From Candidatus Auribacterota bacterium (GTDB lineage Bacteria; Auribacterota; JACPWU01): a stretch of 26,397 nucleotides of DNA. Positions within the stretch are counted from its first letter, which is position 1, and each line of letters opens with the position of its first letter. The stretch covers positions 1 through 26,397 of the forward strand of contig JAYRIK010000087.1 of NCBI GenBank assembly GCA_041906865.1, read 5' to 3'. Of this stretch, positions 18,455 to 26,397 are shown piece after piece. The notes beneath the pieces were generated by a model. It saw only the letters and a program-made list of their open reading frames with translations. It had not been told where the DNA came from and searched no databases. A program made the translations under genes and the position numbers.

Positions 18455-19657
18455 TTAAAGGCCTGAATTACTTTCCTTGGGTGACTCCCTTTCTACTTCA
18501 ATATGAACAGTGAAAATAGTCTTTGAATCAACATTCAAAAGTTGCTTATGATTAAAATGTTGAAATGATCCTTGAGACTGTAACCAATAAATCAAAGTTT
18601 TCTCTTCATCATCATTTCCTACAATAATTTGAAGATCGTTTTCTTGTTTAACTAAACTTCCACCTTTTTCCTCCAGAAACTGTGTAAGTCCATCGATGGC
18701 TAAATCCTCATCCGACACAATCCAAATCCATTTTTGTATTTCCTTTTGCGAATCATTTATAGAATCAAAAGAAACTGTTTTTGCTTTTTCAGGAGAAGCT
18801 CCCAACGCATTTGATCGCACAGGTATTGCTTGACGAGCGGCCAAACCTGCCCCAACTGAAGTCTCTTCTTCGATGACACTCGAAGATTCAGATCTTGGAG
18901 CAACTGCCATATCTTCTGTTGGTAAAGACTCCCTCTTTGCTTCTTTAACACTTGCTTCTCGATAAGAGTCTTCTTTCTGAATAGTTGAACTTTCAGCGCT
19001 TCTTACTTCAGAAACACTTCCTGGTTTCATCAATGATAAAGGCTGTGATTCTTTTAAATCTTTCTCTTCTGTCAAATACGTATTTGAAGCACCCTCTGGA
19101 GCTTTGGCTTTATCTTCTGAACCCCTTATCTCTCTAGAAAGTTGTCCCCTATTTTCAAATTGTCTTCCTTCCCCAATAGGTAAAGGTTTCTTTGCATCGT
19201 TGGGGACATTTTCAACAATAGAAGAAGTAGGCAATTCTCTTTTTCTAGACAAAATAGGAGCTTCAAGTTCATCTGGAGAGGAAGCAGTTCCTATAAGTTC
19301 TTTCACAATGACAGGTCCTTTGGGAATAGGATGACGCGGCAGCATTTCATGAAACACAAAAAAACCAACGATTAAAAGAGCTGCTAACTGAATAGGAAGG
19401 ATCAAACGGCGAGAAAGAAAAATATTTTTAACTTTTTCTTCTCCTTTCAAACGTTTCTGAACAGCCTGAGCAAAACCAGCAGGGGCATGCACTCGTGAAA
19501 AAGTCTTAACTCCTCTCAAAAGTTTTTGAGTCTTTTGAAGAAGGATTCGACAGGTTTCGCATTGGCTCAAATGTTCTTCAAAAGCTTTTCTTTCTTCACC
19601 TAAAAGCTCTTGATCTAAAAAAGCGTCTATTTTTTGAACAATATCTTTACAATTCAT
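18455..19657 (-). CDS. Zinc-finger (zf-HC2) transmembrane anti-sigma factor with a long low-complexity periplasmic tail
   Basis: HLSQCETC (HxxxCxxC), single TM LILPIQLAALLIVGFFVF, directly downstream of the ECF sigma gene. GGAGG RBS before ATG 19657. Confidence 0.88.
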   Translation of the reverse strand: MNCKDIVQKIDAFLDQELLGEERKAFEEHLSQCETCRILLQKTQKLLRGVKTFSRVHAPAGFAQAVQKRLKGEEKVKNIFLSRRLILPIQLAALLIVGFFVFHEMLPRHPIPKGPVIVKELIGTASSPDELEAPILSRKRELPTSSIVENVPNDAKKPLPIGEGRQFENRGQLSREIRGSEDKAKAPEGASNTYLTEEKDLKESQPLSLMKPGSVSEVRSAESSTIQKEDSYREASVKEAKRESLPTEDMAVAPRSESSSVIEEETSVGAGLAARQAIPVRSNALGASPEKAKTVSFDSINDSQKEIQKWIWIVSDEDLAIDGLTQFLEEKGGSLVKQENDLQIIVGNDDEEKTLIYWLQSQGSFQHFNHKQLLNVDSKTIFTVHIEVERESPKESNSGL

Positions 19658-19699
19658 AAATGCCTCCCACGTCTCAAGGCACAACACCTGGCGTACGTA

Positions 19700-19779
19700 A
19701 AAATGAGACTTCTCGACTCCGCTTCGCTCTGCTCGAAGAATAATACTGTTCGAGCGCAGTCGAGAACATTACTCATTTT
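19700..19779. repeat. REP-like family C pair with 8-bp inverted ends, between sigma and anti-sigma genes
   Basis: AAAATGAG (19700-19707) / CTCATTTT (19772-19779) bracket CTTCTCGACT..GCTCGAAGAATA and GTTCGAGCGCAGTCGAGAAC. Confidence 0.75.
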
Positions 19780-20369
19780 CATTGTTGCTCCTTTAATAGC
19801 TCTCTTAAAGTCTTTCTCGCCCGCGAAAGCCTTGATTTTACTGTTCCAACATTCAAAGACAAAATATTCGCAATTTCTTCATAAGAAAGTTCCTGCATAT
19901 CTCTTAAAATAATTACTTCTCGAAACTCGGCATCCAATTTTTTCAAACCCTCATCAATGGCCTCCAACATCTCTTTAGAAATAGCCTGCTCTCGGGATAA
20001 AGGAGCTTCATCCACAGGATCTATTTCAAACTCTCCTTCTTCATCCGAATACTTTGAAAAAGAAACCCATTGGCGCAACTTCTTCCATCGAAGCTTGCTC
20101 TTGGCTAAATTGATGGCAATGCGATAAAGCCATGTCGAAAATTTTGCATCCCGTCTAAAACTTTCTAAACTTCTAAAAGCCTTCACAAAAGCCTCTTGAG
20201 CCATATCTTCGGCTTCTCCAAAATCTCTTAAAATCTGAAATATCATGGATACAATGCGATCCTGATACTTCAGGACAAGCTGATTAAAAGCCTCCAAATC
20301 TCCTCTTTTAGAAGCTTCCACCCAGACTTTTTCCTGAGCCCAATCTTGCATTGAAATCTCATCATCCAT
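19779..20369 (-). CDS. ECF RNA polymerase sigma factor (RpoE/SigW-like)
   Basis: Region 2 AEDMAQEAFVKAF..FSTWLYRIAIN; region 4 LSYEEIANILSLNVGTVKSRLSRAR. Confidence 0.95.
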   Translation of the reverse strand: MDDEISMQDWAQEKVWVEASKRGDLEAFNQLVLKYQDRIVSMIFQILRDFGEAEDMAQEAFVKAFRSLESFRRDAKFSTWLYRIAINLAKSKLRWKKLRQWVSFSKYSDEEGEFEIDPVDEAPLSREQAISKEMLEAIDEGLKKLDAEFREVIILRDMQELSYEEIANILSLNVGTVKSRLSRARKTLRELLKEQQ

Positions 20370-20373
20370 TAAT

Positions 20374-20401
20374 TTAGACGCCTTTCGTGAAGAAAAGTTC
20401 C
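20374..20401 (-). promoter_or_regulatory. ECF-type promoter driving the sigma gene (autoregulation)
   Basis: GGAACTTTT-CTTCACGAAAG-GCGTCTAA; GAACTT-N16-TCTAA matches the RpoE/AlgU-type consensus. ATG lies 4 nt downstream. Confidence 0.85.
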
Positions 20402-20450
20402 CATTATTCTACTAAAAATAAAAAGCCAAAAAACAATTATCATATTTTAT

Positions 20451-20478
20451 GGAACTTTTTTCAAAAACACGCGTCTAA
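20451..20478 (+). promoter_or_regulatory. ECF-type promoter driving the divergent secreted-protein cluster
   Basis: GGAACTTTT-TTCAAAAACAC-GCGTCTAA; same 9-nt and 8-nt boxes and spacing as the minus-strand copy. Confidence 0.85.
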
Positions 20479-20542
20479 GTAAGTAGAAATCGACATTACT
20501 TATTTGATACTATTTGTGTAACTTTAACGGGAGGAAAATGAA

Positions 20543-21010
20543 ATGATAAGAATAAGAGATATTAAGCCTATTCTACTTTTATTTTTTCTTATGAGTTCTT
20601 CTTTTTGTAAAGCAGATAATTTTTCAAATAACCCCTCTCAACCAGAAAAAGAGGCTTACAACTTACTTCTACATGATGAAACTTTTTGCTTCTCAGGATT
20701 GGGAGAATCAGGAATTCCTAGTCCAGAAATTGGAGCCATGAAAACAATTCTTGCATCTACTCACGCAAAAGAACAATTAATTTCCCTCTATGATGAAGGA
20801 TCGACGATTGCAAAACTATATGCTTTGATAGGAATTTGGCATTTGAACAAAGAAGAATTTTCCTCTAGGGCCGAAAAAATAAACAAGGAAGATTCTGCAG
20901 TCCCTGAAATCTCTGGCTGTAATCCAAGACCTATACCCAAAAGAGTTGCGGATATTCTTGCAGCTATTAAAGGAAATGTTTTTGAATGGCATCTTAAAAA
21001 TCATCAATAG
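20543..21010 (+). CDS. Secreted helical hypothetical protein, tandem paralogue 1
   Basis: Signal peptide; 87/118 identity to 21022-21477 over the core by manual alignment; two conserved Cys (FCFSG, ISGC). Confidence 0.85.
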   Translation: MIRIRDIKPILLLFFLMSSSFCKADNFSNNPSQPEKEAYNLLLHDETFCFSGLGESGIPSPEIGAMKTILASTHAKEQLISLYDEGSTIAKLYALIGIWHLNKEEFSSRAEKINKEDSAVPEISGCNPRPIPKRVADILAAIKGNVFEWHLKNHQ

Positions 21011-21021
21011 AGAGGACTTCC

Positions 21022-21477
21022 ATGAAACTTACAGGAATCATTTTATTTCTATTTTTTCTTACAACCTTTTCTAAAGCGGATGATTCGATGAAAAATGCTT
21101 TTTCTTCAGAACAAGAGGCTTACAATTTACTTTTAAATGATCAAAATTTTTGTTTTTCAGGATTAGGAGCCTCAGGCCACAAAAGCAAAGAAATTGTCGC
21201 AATAAAAAATATTCTTGCATCTCCTCATGCGGTTGAACAACTGATATCACTTTATGAAAAGGGTTCTACGGCTGCCAAGCTTTATTCCCTCATAGGACTT
21301 TGGCATTTAAAGAGAGAAGAATTTTCATCAAGAGCTGAAGAAATTAAAAAAGAGAATCCTCAGGTTTCTGAAATTTCTGGTTGTGACCCTACCCCCTATC
21401 CTAGAAGAGTCGCAGATATTGTTGCAGCTATTAAAGGAAATGTTTTTGAATGGCATCTTAAAGAAAAAGCCAAGTAA
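21022..21477 (+). CDS. Secreted helical hypothetical protein, tandem paralogue 2
   Basis: Signal peptide (SKA-DD), GAGG RBS; shares a 41-nt identical block (20958-20998 = 21422-21462) with paralogue 1. Confidence 0.87.
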   Translation: MKLTGIILFLFFLTTFSKADDSMKNAFSSEQEAYNLLLNDQNFCFSGLGASGHKSKEIVAIKNILASPHAVEQLISLYEKGSTAAKLYSLIGLWHLKREEFSSRAEEIKKENPQVSEISGCDPTPYPRRVADIVAAIKGNVFEWHLKEKAK

Positions 21478-21495: not shown

Positions 21496-22962
21496 ATGAA
21501 ACTGAATCTTATAAAAACAAAAAAAATCTTCACCTCATACTTAAGTCTTCTCGCATTTTTTTATTTATCAAGCGCTCACACAGGAATGGCAGAGCTAAAA
21601 TCTCAGCAATCGACTCTTTCCGATCGAAAAAGCGTGAATATCACGATTTATAATTCGGATTTGGGATTGGTGAAGGAAACACGAGCCCTTAAACTTGAAA
21701 AAGGACTTTTGAATTTGGCTTTTATGGATGTAGCGTCCAAAATTCAAACAGAAACCGTTCATATTAAATCTTTATCTGATCCCGCAAGTCTTTCCATTCT
21801 TGAACAAAATTACCAATACGATTTACTCAGCCCTGAAAAATTGCTTGAAAAATACATTGGCAAAAAAATCAAAGTTTATCGTTGGAATGATGTGACAGGC
21901 AAAGATCAAGAATATGAAGCCGAAGTTCTTTCGAACAATAATGGGACCATTCTCAAAATAGGAGATGAAATCACCTATGGTTTTCCTGCACGCTTCTCTT
22001 TCCCTGAAGTCCCTAAAAATCTTATCTCCAAACCCACTCTGGTTTGGCTTTTAGAAAATGAACTCCCTGAACAAGAATTAGAAGTGTCTTATTTAACGGA
22101 AGGAATGACCTGGAAATCAGACTATGTTTTAACCGTCAATAAAGATGAAAATGGTGGAGATTTCAACGGCTGGGTCACATTGAATAATACCAGTGGGACA
22201 ATTTATGAAAATGCAACCTTGAAACTGGTTGCAGGAGATGTTCACCGCATTCCAAAACCTTTAGGTTATTTAGGCTGTGTCGAAGCAGAAACAGCCGCTG
22301 CTCCCCGCATGCAAAAAGCACGTGCGGACTTCAAAGAAGAATCTTTTTTTGAATATCATCTCTATACCCTTCAACGCCCCACCACTCTTTTAGACAACGA
22401 ACAAAAACAAGTTTCACTCTTGGAAGCCCCGAATATCAAGCTTGAGAAGAAACTGATTTTCTACGGACAACCTTACTATTATCGTGGTTCTTACGGTCAA
22501 GTGATGTCCAATCAAAAAGTGGGGGTTTATCTAGATATTGAAAACAAAAAAGAAAATGGAATGGGCATGCCTCTTCCTAAAGGTAATGTTCGTGTTTACA
22601 AAGCTGATACAGAAGGATCTCTTCAATTCATTGGAGAAGATTCCATTGATCACACGCCCAAAGACGAAAAAGTGCGCATCAAAATGGGAGAAGCATTTGA
22701 TGTGGTAGGCGAACGCAAACAAATGGAATGGAAAGCTGAAGGTATTTGTGGTTCTGAATCTACTTGGGAAGTAACACTTAAAAATCATAAAGACCAAGAT
22801 GCTGCAGTGGAAGTTGTAGAACCTATCAATGGCGACTGGAAAATTCTTTCCTCTTCCCATCCTTATGAAAAAATAGATGCTCATACATTCACATTCAAAA
22901 TTGTAGTTCCCAAAAATGGAGAAGTCAAAATTCAATATCGCGTTCAAATTGATTGGTGCTAA
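21496..22962 (+). CDS. DUF4139 (with DUF4140-like N-terminus) exported protein
   Basis: VNITIYNSDLGLVKETR, ILEQNYQYDLLSPEKLLEKYIG, SYLTEGMTWKSDY, PLPKGNVRVY, FIGEDSIDHTPKDE; signal peptide; AAGGAG RBS. Confidence 0.88.
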   Translation: MKLNLIKTKKIFTSYLSLLAFFYLSSAHTGMAELKSQQSTLSDRKSVNITIYNSDLGLVKETRALKLEKGLLNLAFMDVASKIQTETVHIKSLSDPASLSILEQNYQYDLLSPEKLLEKYIGKKIKVYRWNDVTGKDQEYEAEVLSNNNGTILKIGDEITYGFPARFSFPEVPKNLISKPTLVWLLENELPEQELEVSYLTEGMTWKSDYVLTVNKDENGGDFNGWVTLNNTSGTIYENATLKLVAGDVHRIPKPLGYLGCVEAETAAAPRMQKARADFKEESFFEYHLYTLQRPTTLLDNEQKQVSLLEAPNIKLEKKLIFYGQPYYYRGSYGQVMSNQKVGVYLDIENKKENGMGMPLPKGNVRVYKADTEGSLQFIGEDSIDHTPKDEKVRIKMGEAFDVVGERKQMEWKAEGICGSESTWEVTLKNHKDQDAAVEVVEPINGDWKILSSSHPYEKIDAHTFTFKIVVPKNGEVKIQYRVQIDWC

Positions 22963-22974
22963 TAAAAATCGTAT

Positions 22975-23020
22975 TGCGTCATGCGTTGTGCGTTCTACGT
23001 AAAAAACATAACGCATGACG
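22975..23020. repeat. Inverted heptamer repeat (RTGCGTY / ACGCATR family), intergenic
   Basis: TGCGTC-ATGCGTT-GTGCGTT..ACGCATG-ACG, preceded by TAAAAATCG as is the 26114 copy. Confidence 0.75.
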
Positions 23021-23041
23021 GACAAAGACAAGGAGATATGT

Positions 23042-26000
23042 ATGAAAATCTTAAAATTAGTTCTAGTAATACCGCTTATATTTCTAACTCTGCTCTCTTT
23101 AAAAGCAGATACGCCTACAAATGGATATATTTCCCTTACTGCTTCGGATGGAACAGGACTTGAATTAAGAGACATGAAAGTAAAAGCTGTGGTCGATGGG
23201 ATGACAGCTTTTACAGAAATGGAATTAACTTTCTATAATCCTGAAAATCGCCAAAGAGAAGGACATTTTTCTATTCTACTTCCTCCTAAAGCTACGATGA
23301 GTCGATTTGCCATGATGATCAATGATCGTTGGCAAGAGGGTGAAGTCGTTGAGACTCAAAAAGCACGCCAAGCCTATGAAGATTTTCTTCATCGCAAGCA
23401 AGATCCTGCTTTATTGGAACAGGACAATGGGAATATGTTTAGAGCTCGTATTTTCCCAATTCCTGCCAATGCTGAAAAAAAGTTGATTGTGTCCTATTCT
23501 GAGTTATTGGTAAACAATCATGCAACTTACGTTTTCCCTCTCAAAGGACTCCCCCAACTCAAAGATATGTCCATCAAGGTTTTTTATAAAGATAAATCTG
23601 TTCCAACAGGGAAAGATGTTGGAGTTGTCTCGTCTCTGGGCGGACAGGTAAAAAATTGGAAAGTCATGAGTGTTGAAAAGAAAGATTATCAACCAGATCA
23701 GGATTTTTCTTTAAGCTTCCCTTTTGTACAAAAAGATATTTATGCACTTCGTGTGGAGAATATGGCTGCCGTAAAATTTCAACCTTTTCCCGTAGGTTTA
23801 AAATGGAAAAGTAAAATTTTAAATGACTGGGTAATTCTCTATGATACATCGGCATCTCAAGCACTAGATTATGAGAAAAATATAAACCAATTTGGAAAAC
23901 TCCTTCAAGAGCTGTTCGATGAAAAAGCAGCAAATTCTATCTCAGTGATTGCTTTCGACCAAGAAATTCAAAAAATAGCCGAAATCACCAAGCCTGAAGA
24001 GATTGAAAAAATTCTTATCTCTTTAAAAGAACGCCAAGCATTAGGTGCTTCTAATTTTGAGAACGCCTTCACAAAGCTATCCGAGTTAATGAACTCTCAA
24101 GCTGAACGTCTCCTGATTATTTCGGACGGAGCAGCCACAGCTTTTGAAACTGATAAAATAAAGTTGTCAGAGAAACTCGGGCAAATAAAATCCATTCAAA
24201 GAACGGATTGTTTGGCCTTATCCACTTATCGCAATGAAGATTTTTTAACCACTATGTCCCGATCAAGTAAAGAAGCGGGTGTTGTCCTCTACGGGAAAAT
24301 GGAGCAAGAAGTAATGATTAAAAAATTAAGGACGCCAACATGGAAAGAAATGACCATTGAAGTCCCAGGAGCCGAATGGTTTTGGCCACAGAAGCTCGAA
24401 GGCCTCCAACCTGGGGATGAAATCGTGGTGTTCGCCGAAATTGCCAAGGACAAACCATTTCAAATTAAATATCTCGACCAAACGATCCGTCTACAGCCTG
24501 AATCAACCGAAGCACAACTTCTCAAACGAGAATGGGTCAAGGCCCGCATTCAAAAACTTCTTGAAAGTGAAACAACTTCTCAAGACAAAGATATGAAAAG
24601 TGCTTTCCATAATGAAGTTGTCCGACTTTCAGAAAAAGAACGTGTTCTCTCCCCTTACACATCTCTTTTGGTATTAGAAACAGAGTGGGATTATCAACGC
24701 TACAGCATTGATCGAAATGCGTTAGCTGACATTCTGACAATTGGACCTGATGGTTTGACTCTCATCAACCGCAAAAGTGAAGACATTGTTGCTGTACGAC
24801 CCCCAGCCCCAGGACAAGGGAATTTAGTCAGGGCAGAAGTCGCTCGTAAACAGGCATCTCCGACATCTGGTCAGTCAAATTTTGAGGGAGAGCTAAATGC
24901 GATTATTAATGAAGGCCGACAAAATTCAGACGTTTCCTTTTCATCCGATGCCAAAGCTAAAGAAGAAGGGGACTTAGGCTCTGCAGCGCCCTCAAGAAAA
25001 GTAGAACAAGCTGTAACGGGGGCTTCTTCAACTCAAAATCAAGTTATGGAAAGACGTGTGATGGAGAATGTAGCGCCAGCTAGACAAAGAGTCACTACGC
25101 CTCCTTCAAATCCAGTCCCCTCCATCTTCTCTGAACAAGTGAGTGGGACAAGCAATATTGAAACAAATGGAAAAGAGCCATGGATTGGCGATTATGCCCA
25201 AGCCAAGAAAATGATGAAAGATTCAGATCTTAAGTCCACCAAGGAATTTATTTTACAGTGGAGAACAAAAAATCCTGCCGATGCATTAGCCCTTATTGCC
25301 CTCGGAGAAGTAGAAGCAAAAATGGGCAATGGGCTTGCTGCAGCCCGTGCTTACGGTTCATTGATTGATCTCTTCCCTTCTCGAGCTGATATTCGACGTT
25401 GGGCCTCCGAACGTCTTTTAGAAATTACCGAAGGACAGACCTTGGCTAAAGATTCTTTGATCAAAGCAAATGAACAAAGAAAAGATCATCCTTCAGGATA
25501 CGTATTGCTTGCCACAGCAGAAATGATCACGGGTCATTTGGATTCGGCCATTAACATTCTTGTCGCAGGTTTAAGTCGTCAATATCCTGATAGATATCCT
25601 CAAGTAGATCGAATCATGAAAGAGATGATTGGTTTAATTCTGTCATCTAAACAGGGTCAACATTTACTTAAGGATGAGGCTATTCAAGAAATTATACGAA
25701 AATACAACGTTGATATAAAAATGAAACCTCAACTACGATTTCTCTTAACTTGGGAAACAGATGCCAATGATGTCGACTTTCATATTTATGACAAGGACAA
25801 GAATCACGCATTTTATCAAGGCAAAATCCTAAGTTCCGGTGGCGAGCTTTATGCAGATATCACACAAGGATACGGTCCTGAATGTTTTGCTGTAGAAAAT
25901 CCGAAAGCTTTCCCCTATCAGCTTCAAGCCCATTATTATTCTCGCGGCCCTATGGGATATGGTATGGGCTTATTGCAAGTTGTTCGTTTTTCTGAGGATT

Positions 26001-26095
26001 TAAACTTGTCAATCGAGAATAGACCTTTTATCATCATGCAAGATCAAGCCTTTGTGAATTTAGGAGAAGTGCATTCTCAAACTGCAACAAAGTAA
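23042..26095 (+). CDS. Exported VIT + vWA-like + TPR + DUF2135 (YfaP-like) protein
   Basis: VIT: TEMELTFYNPENRQREG..RFAM..EGEVVE..ARQAYE..DPALLEQ..RARIFPIP. vWA: LYDTSASQ. C-terminal LRFLLTWETDANDVDFHI..YADITQGYGPECF. Start moved to ATG 23042 (AAGGAG). Confidence 0.85.
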   Translation: MKILKLVLVIPLIFLTLLSLKADTPTNGYISLTASDGTGLELRDMKVKAVVDGMTAFTEMELTFYNPENRQREGHFSILLPPKATMSRFAMMINDRWQEGEVVETQKARQAYEDFLHRKQDPALLEQDNGNMFRARIFPIPANAEKKLIVSYSELLVNNHATYVFPLKGLPQLKDMSIKVFYKDKSVPTGKDVGVVSSLGGQVKNWKVMSVEKKDYQPDQDFSLSFPFVQKDIYALRVENMAAVKFQPFPVGLKWKSKILNDWVILYDTSASQALDYEKNINQFGKLLQELFDEKAANSISVIAFDQEIQKIAEITKPEEIEKILISLKERQALGASNFENAFTKLSELMNSQAERLLIISDGAATAFETDKIKLSEKLGQIKSIQRTDCLALSTYRNEDFLTTMSRSSKEAGVVLYGKMEQEVMIKKLRTPTWKEMTIEVPGAEWFWPQKLEGLQPGDEIVVFAEIAKDKPFQIKYLDQTIRLQPESTEAQLLKREWVKARIQKLLESETTSQDKDMKSAFHNEVVRLSEKERVLSPYTSLLVLETEWDYQRYSIDRNALADILTIGPDGLTLINRKSEDIVAVRPPAPGQGNLVRAEVARKQASPTSGQSNFEGELNAIINEGRQNSDVSFSSDAKAKEEGDLGSAAPSRKVEQAVTGASSTQNQVMERRVMENVAPARQRVTTPPSNPVPSIFSEQVSGTSNIETNGKEPWIGDYAQAKKMMKDSDLKSTKEFILQWRTKNPADALALIALGEVEAKMGNGLAAARAYGSLIDLFPSRADIRRWASERLLEITEGQTLAKDSLIKANEQRKDHPSGYVLLATAEMITGHLDSAINILVAGLSRQYPDRYPQVDRIMKEMIGLILSSKQGQHLLKDEAIQEIIRKYNVDIKMKPQLRFLLTWETDANDVDFHIYDKDKNHAFYQGKILSSGGELYADITQGYGPECFAVENPKAFPYQLQAHYYSRGPMGYGMGLLQVVRFSEDLNLSIENRPFIIMQDQAFVNLGEVHSQTATK

Positions 26096-26200: not shown

Positions 26201-26397
26201 ATGATTTCCCTATACGCTAAAACTGATGACGAAGAAATTTCAGCTGCTTTTCAAGAGTTAGGACCTGCTCAGGAAATTAAGCAAATTACTTTCCCATGGA
26301 AGGGGCAAGAAGTTCTGTGTGATGTCACAGGTTGGCAAAATGAACCGGGGCCTCAAAAAACTCCCGCATTTGCTCAACCCATCACAGACTCGGGAGA
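26201..26397 (+). CDS. Hypothetical protein, truncated by the window edge
   Basis: GAGGT RBS, then MISLYAKTDDEEISAAFQELGPAQEIKQITFPWKGQEVLCDVTGWQNEPGPQKTPAFAQPITDSG..., open to the window end. Confidence 0.6.
   Translation, partial: MISLYAKTDDEEISAAFQELGPAQEIKQITFPWKGQEVLCDVTGWQNEPGPQKTPAFAQPITDSG

Follow-up and report, generated by a model that had tools for sequence, protein, structure and literature searches.

The closest known counterparts of the locus analysed here are the sigma-E (RpoE) system of E. coli and the AlgU system of P. aeruginosa, the SigW-RsiW pair of B. subtilis, and the EcfG/NepR loci of Alphaproteobacteria. RpoE/AlgU regulons comprise roughly 50–100 genes, local regulons are common for ECF sigmas, and the SigW promoter reads TGAAAC-N16-CGTA, which differs from the motif described below. 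As a rule, an ECF sigma activates its own operon and is encoded next to the genes that it controls (PMC7826278; PMC7083833). E. coli sigma-E promoters have the −35 element GGAACTTTT, a strongly preferred 16-nt spacer to TCAAA, and an A/T-rich upstream region; their canonical discriminator is 5–6 nt long with a purine start, and a distance of 25 nt from −35 to +1 is at the bottom of the range seen for E. coli (Rhodius et al., PMC1312014). On the protein side, S172 and R176 of sigma-E read G-34 and G-35, the two G’s of GGAAC, while R171 is the partner of the C in that motif, a base that correlates with R or K at this residue; F or H occupies the position of sigma-E F175 in nearly all group IV sigmas (Lane and Darst, PMC1540707).

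The DNA under study, hereafter the window, is the entire 26,397-bp contig C87 of a metagenome-assembled genome (G000; 1.89 Mb, 82% complete, 38% G+C). The DNA runs that contain the window sequence come from activated sludge, and the phylum, Candidatus Aureabacteria, now Candidatus Auribacterota, belongs to the PVC group. The genus is represented by two genomes, and the sole other one, G001, is 97% complete and serves as the sister species in the comparisons below. The features of the locus are, in order along the window:

18455–19657 (−): zf-HC2 anti-sigma factor, 400 aa, single-pass, HxxxCxxC (Pfam zf-HC2; start revised by alignment with G001)
19658–19778 (−): 121-nt gap between the sigma and anti-sigma genes, with a strong hairpin element (MFE −41.4 kcal/mol, z = −2.5)
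19779–20369 (−): ECF (group IV) sigma factor, 196 aa, RpoE/AlgU/SigW-like (Pfam, NCBIfam and PDB matches)
20374–20381 (−): −10 box GCGTCTAA of the putative sigma-side promoter (identical in G001 at the same 4-nt distance; GTCTAA invariant across lineages)
20393–20401 (−): −35 box GGAACTTTT of the putative sigma-side promoter (identical in G001; GAAC invariant in a 10-promoter alignment)
20402–20450 (no strand): 49-bp stretch between the two −35 boxes, 84% A+T, length not conserved
20451–20459 (+): −35 box GGAACTTTT of the putative target-operon promoter (window scan; identical in G001; GAAC invariant in the 10-promoter alignment)
20471–20478 (+): −10 box GCGTCTAA of the putative target-operon promoter (window scan; identical in G001; GTCTAA invariant across lineages)
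20479–20542 (+): predicted 5′ leader of the target operon; its GGAGG lies 8 nt ahead of the start codon (ATG, 20543)
20543–21010 (+): small secreted protein, paralogue A, 155 aa (no Pfam match; 69% identical to paralogue B)
21022–21477 (+): small secreted protein, paralogue B, 151 aa (no Pfam match)
21496–22962 (+): DUF4139 protein, 488 aa (Pfam PF13598, 32.5 bits, cut-off 31.8; Atlas feature search agrees)
23015–26095 (+): exported VIT-vWA-TPR protein, 1026 aa (Pfam VIT and VWA)

The motif GGAACTTTT-N11-GCGTCTAA stands once on each strand, at 20374–20401 (−) and 20451–20478 (+), and the gap between its two elements is 11 nt in both copies. The original prediction had described exactly this arrangement (49 bp apart, 17 identical positions, equal spacing), with one copy facing the sigma/anti-sigma genes and the other facing the paralogue-DUF4139-VIT cluster, and both the sequence and the gene positions agree with it. 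The (−) copy stops 4 nt short of the ATG of the sigma gene, and the (+) copy stops 64 nt short of the first gene in a four-gene co-oriented run. When the window was scanned with up to three mismatches allowed, the twin sites were the sole two matches (0.15 expected; two or more in 0 of 100 shuffles), and they were again the sole two in the whole 1.89-Mb assembly with up to two mismatches. Both copies read GGAACTT-N16-TCTAA and conform to the sigma-E-type consensus GGAACTT-N16-TCnAA, taken from PMC1312014. Their −35 GGAACTTTT is also the −35 of sigma-E promoters in E. coli and of AlgU promoters in P. aeruginosa, and they share with these promoters the 16-nt spacer from GGAACTT to TC(T/A)AA and an A/T-rich upstream region (PMC1312014). 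Unlike in sigma-E promoters, the −10 is GTCTAA rather than GTCAAA. It is possible that the A+T-rich stretch at 20402–20450 is a UP-like region shared by both promoters.

The likeness to RpoE/AlgU, which had been proposed for the promoter motif GAACTT-N16-TCTAA, is true of the promoter by the published consensus and extends to the sigma factor by its NCBIfam and PDB matches. The protein has regions 2 and 4 only, matched in Pfam by Sigma70_r2 (residues 31–94) and Sigma70_r4_2 (136–188), which with its length of 196 aa places it in the ECF (group IV) class; it scores 105.6 bits against TIGR02937 (cut-off 42.9). Its best NCBIfam match is RpoE (TIGR02939) at 152.2 bits, below the equivalog cut-off of 236.15, so that it falls outside RpoE/AlgU proper. 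SigW is second best, in NCBIfam as in the PDB, where the closest proteins are P. aeruginosa AlgU, B. subtilis SigW, and E. coli sigma-E. No closer relatives beyond G001 were found among GTDB representatives or JGI metagenomes. Aligned to the sigma-E structure (1or7), the recognition helix reads GTVKSRLSRAR, against GTVRSRIFRAR in sigma-E. The residues that read GG and C are thus conserved, with the equivalents of S172 and R176 kept and K at the R171 position, while the F175 position holds S, which is atypical for group IV and sets this sigma apart from RpoE.

The pairing with a co-encoded, sigma-binding anti-sigma factor that characterizes ECF families is found here in the zf-HC2 gene directly downstream and in a complex prediction. 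The anti-sigma is a single-pass membrane protein whose HxxxCxxC domain is N-terminal, as in other zf-HC2 (ZAS) anti-sigmas. We place its start at the ATG at 19657, which is preceded by GGGAGG and matches the N-terminus of the G001 protein (window 19655–19687, −); on the same evidence the GTG at 19687, which would give the longest ORF, is probably wrong. No RseA_N match was found in this downstream anti-sigma, which is of the zf-HC2 type and, unlike the partners of RpoE/AlgU, not of the RseA/MucA type. The sigma/anti-sigma complex model scores 0.78, against 0.24 for the best control, and passes a threshold that 51 of the 78 solved complexes cleared, as did 2 of the 108 mismatched pairs, although this pass may partly reflect likeness to solved complexes. 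In the model, the N-terminal domain of the anti-sigma is predicted to clamp the sigma and to contact both of its domains. The extracytoplasmic part of the anti-sigma had no detectable relatives, even among other VIT-linked systems, which distinguishes it from SigW-RsiW/ZAS pairs. We also asked if this sensor domain and the small secreted proteins encoded in the neighbouring operon are paralogous; comparison revealed no similarity. The hairpin element at 19658–19778, flanked by AAAATGAG and CTCATTTT, could attenuate expression of the anti-sigma relative to the sigma; G001 lacks it, and there the sigma and anti-sigma genes share a 4-nt overlap.

On the (+) strand, the four co-oriented genes are separated by gaps of 11, 18, and 52 nt; no terminator was predicted inside the operon, and no sigma-70-like promoter was predicted for it. 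The leader at 20479–20542 is 84% identical to that of G001 (54 of 64 positions), a higher identity than that of the DNA preceding the −35 box. A comparison of the leader with Rfam gave no match, and its folding does not go beyond that of shuffles (z = −0.07). The small secreted protein is duplicated in the window genome only, being single copy in G001, the sole close relative. A profile search with the two paralogues yielded 507 remote relatives of ~150 aa, all unnamed and in no Pfam family; some of these are tandem repeats within longer proteins. Weak NCBIfam MchS3 matches to the small secreted proteins were also seen, as were HEAT-like clusters among the lower-ranked Atlas matches. The gene contexts of the remote relatives are unrelated. 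For the DUF4139 protein, a link to the Pseudomonas MuiA family was not supported, as no NCBIfam model matched, and we found no literature linking DUF4139 with ECF sigmas. The VIT-vWA protein ends in C-terminal TPR-like repeats. A small, cytoplasmic-looking ORF (26201–26397, +) that begins 105 nt past the VIT gene is cut off by the contig end. Its identity to a 111-aa ORF of G001 is 97%, and it is more conserved than the neighbouring genes.

Comparison with the sister species separates the boxes from their surroundings. The G001 proteins are 90% (sigma), 55% (anti-sigma), 94% (DUF4139), and 84% (VIT) identical to those of the window, and both box pairs lie at orthologous places. All 34 box positions are unchanged, against 10 of 22 spacer positions (Fisher p = 1.2e-6). 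The distance between the copies, on the other hand, is 231 bp in G001 versus 49 bp in the window genome, because a mobile repeat has inserted between them. This extra DNA is one member of a multi-copy repeat that is present at least 40 times in G001 and at least 14 times in the window genome. In G001 it occupies L033:10335–10505 (G001:C2:168334–168504) and is GC-rich and ~100–170 bp long, and the data suggest that the repeat family separating the two promoters is REP/MITE-like. Since the boxes are kept while the spacers have diverged and the distance between copies is free, the boxes would work independently, as −35/−10 pairs. The comparative evidence hence fits two independent ECF promoters, in line with the way the twin sites had been read in the original prediction.

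Beyond the genus, the GGAAC-N17-GTCTAA box turns up again in front of orthologues of the sigma, VIT-vWA, and DUF4139 genes. In G026, a genome of another family (92% complete), the box occurs exactly twice genome-wide: one site directly adjoins an ECF sigma/zf-HC2 operon, and the other is 53 nt upstream of a VIT-vWA-TPR orthologue (53% identical). These divergent sites are separated by 1.1 kb that includes an exonuclease gene. The sigma/anti-sigma operon of G026 runs on into a gene for an 832-aa Ser/Thr protein kinase with TPR repeats (L274:10644–13142), which suggests a second signalling layer in that lineage. The metagenome contig L279 carries, on one strand, a box, the sigma, the anti-sigma, a second box, and a VIT orthologue (45% identical), so that its two boxes are direct, not inverted, and 1.9 kb apart. 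Contig L280 has an anti-sigma fragment, then the box, then VIT, and in L281 the box in front of VIT deviates slightly (N18, GTCTTA). The box is therefore present at all four loci examined for close VIT orthologues, those with 45–53% identity (L279, L280, L281, and G026), and at these box-bearing loci an ECF sigma/anti-sigma pair usually adjoins. Where the loci of more distant VIT homologues from other phyla were examined, both the sigma and the box were missing. From these comparisons the VIT-vWA-TPR gene is, as far as sequence can tell, the most constant target of this promoter type.

DUF4139 orthologues occur in ~18 genomes of the phylum and are never next to a sigma gene. In the three species of genus g8, TGAAC-N17-GTCTAA nevertheless lies at −62 to −35 of the DUF4139 orthologue, and the sigma orthologue of that genus has GGAAT-N17-GTCTAA with a normal 30-nt leader. 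Across the 29 loci of sigma homologues in the phylum, the pattern [GT]GAA[CT]-N16-18-GTC[TCA]A, counted within 250 nt upstream, appears in the sense orientation at 17 and in antisense at none. An alignment of 10 promoters from six lineages leaves GAAC and GTCTAA as the sole invariant parts, from which we derive the consensus GGAAC(TTTT)-N12-GTCTAA.

The expectation that the motif could be used to find the rest of the regulon was not borne out, as the genome scans run with it gave no further members. Scanning G001 with GAAC-N17-GTCTAA returned only the two orthologous sites, compared with 10 matches for a reversed control pattern. A looser pattern with up to two mismatches gave 151 matches in the window genome, none convincing besides the twin sites. 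A third GGAACTT-N16-TCTAA site from a looser genome scan (C213:6451) is antisense in a 979-aa ORF and was judged a chance match. A GAAC-N17-GTCTAA match at C19:6579 covers the first codons of an ORF for a CoA-binding protein (MNVAVVGASNK) and has no G001 counterpart. In g8, the second conserved match sits inside an aminotransferase gene and was likewise set aside as a regulon member. One g8 species only has GAAC-N17-GTCTAA 113 nt upstream of dnaK (L168; G047:C129:28636–28662), a site that may be a chance occurrence or a lineage-specific regulon member. Given that the scans revealed no further members, the regulon appears to be local and to consist of the two local operons only; this sets it apart from the large RpoE/AlgU regulons. 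Members could be missing from the window assembly, as it is 82% complete; G001, at 97%, shows none.

Taken together, we consider it highly probable, from comparative sequence evidence, that the twin sites are two independent divergent promoters read by the adjacent ECF sigma. By what is known of the family, the membrane-bound zf-HC2 anti-sigma would hold the sigma in the resting state, and an envelope signal would free it. The sigma-RNA polymerase holoenzyme would then use region 4.2 to bind GGAAC(TTTT) and region 2 to bind GTCTAA. It would transcribe its own sigma/anti-sigma operon, giving positive feedback with a built-in brake, and would also transcribe the operon of the two small secreted paralogues, the DUF4139 protein, and the large exported VIT-vWA-TPR protein. 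The autoregulation that we infer for this sigma resembles that of the rpoE and algU promoters.

The promoter that an autoregulated ECF sigma has of its own carries AAC in the −35 box and a −10 box of the CGT/GTC type. In front of the sigma gene the conserved motif does occur, at an atypical distance from the ATG. The junctions between the −10 box and the first in-frame ATG are:

20362–20381 (−) of the window: 4 nt from box to ATG in G000
L033:10260–10279: 4 nt in G001
L274:8660–8680: 0 nt in G026
L279:3359–3370: 1 nt in L279

The string TCTAAAT(N)AATGG recurs at the sigma start in G000, G001, and G026. With the box 0–4 nt from the ATG and a discriminator of 5–6 nt, the transcript would start on or inside the ATG codon. 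In G000 and G001, a leaderless mRNA from the A of the ATG needs a 4-nt discriminator, which appears just possible and would set −35 and +1 25 nt apart. For G026 and L279, leaderless initiation at the first ATG does not appear geometrically plausible, and a downstream start codon would therefore be needed there; candidates are a GTG at codon 7 in G026, with nothing obvious in L279 or in G001. In the window, the candidate start codons are the ATG at 20369 and another ATG at 20351, to which an ATA is aligned in G001. No Shine-Dalgarno sequence was seen before the sigma ATG, whereas neighbouring genes have GGAGG. Both this absence and the 0–4 nt spacing in four lineages, short of the sigma-E discriminator, would be expected if only the (+), target-side copy works and the sigma-side copy is too near the start codon to give a translatable message, in which case that copy would be a relic, or would act by sigma-dependent interference with, or occlusion of, a transcript from further upstream. 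We regard this as unlikely. The sigma-side boxes are conserved as strictly as the target-side boxes, and they recur before sigma genes across the phylum, including the g8 orthologue with its normal leader. The 25-nt distance from −35 to +1 is within the E. coli range (PMC1312014). Nor is there a conserved sigma-70-type promoter upstream to supply the alternative transcript: a weak sigma-70-like match in the window (TTGAAA-17-GATAAT, − strand, between the boxes) is absent from G001.

A still less likely explanation, to which we give very little weight, is that the sites are real ECF promoters read by another sigma, either the ECF sigma of contig C74 or one encoded in the 18% of the genome that the assembly lacks. 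The assignment to the adjacent sigma rests on adjacency and family rules, and many sigma paralogues of the phylum carry similar GGAAC-N17-GTC(T/C)A motifs, which makes cross-recognition conceivable. The genome, however, shows two ECF sigmas only. The C74 sigma, the one other ECF sigma, is 31% identical to that of the window, has no such box upstream, and has M at the R171 position, the one that pairs with the C of GGAAC (PMC1540707). The box, moreover, travels with this sigma type in G001, G026, L279, and g8. On one strand the two copies do form an inverted repeat, and the genome is rich in REP/MITE-like repeats, yet it is highly improbable that they make up a palindromic operator bound by a regulator dimer, or that they are terminal inverted repeats belonging to a small mobile element, given that the arm-to-arm distance is 49 versus 231 bp between species, that the arms are bipartite with variable 11-nt centres, that there is a single copy per genome, and that the L279 copies are direct and 1.9 kb apart.

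With two divergent promoters read by the adjacent sigma as the favoured reading, the locus resembles the EcfG/NepR loci of Alphaproteobacteria in that its sigma operon and an adjacent target unit bear matching −35/−10 boxes. It differs from them in its targets (VIT-vWA-TPR, DUF4139, and small secreted paralogues), in phylum, and in the −10 word. An autoregulated ECF operon with a neighbouring target unit bearing matching boxes is a standard architecture (PMC7826278). As a self-activating and presumably stress-responsive switch it is of an ordinary kind, and since this is textbook ECF logic, it opens no new question about regulation. The main text of the ECF classification (Casas-Pastor 2021, PMC7826278) mentions no group with a VIT-domain neighbour. 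We tentatively suggest, holding it somewhat short of an even chance, that the sigma, the zf-HC2 anti-sigma, and the exported VIT-vWA-TPR protein may form a conserved ECF module, so far undescribed, that Candidatus Auribacterota shares with related uncultured bacteria. The regulon of this module would essentially be one exported giant protein, with DUF4139 and the duplicated small secreted protein recruited to the same operon in this genus, and its sigma message would start at or within a few nt of the start codon, implying leaderless or non-canonical translation.

For a phylum without cultured members, the locus provides a first promoter consensus, GGAAC(TTTT)-N12-GTCTAA, and a putative two-operon regulon for an Auribacterota ECF sigma. 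It ties VIT-vWA-TPR and DUF4139 proteins, which are functionally uncharacterized, to an envelope-type sigma/anti-sigma switch. This regulatory link suggests when these proteins are made, and overexpression of the sigma would be a simple handle for studying them.
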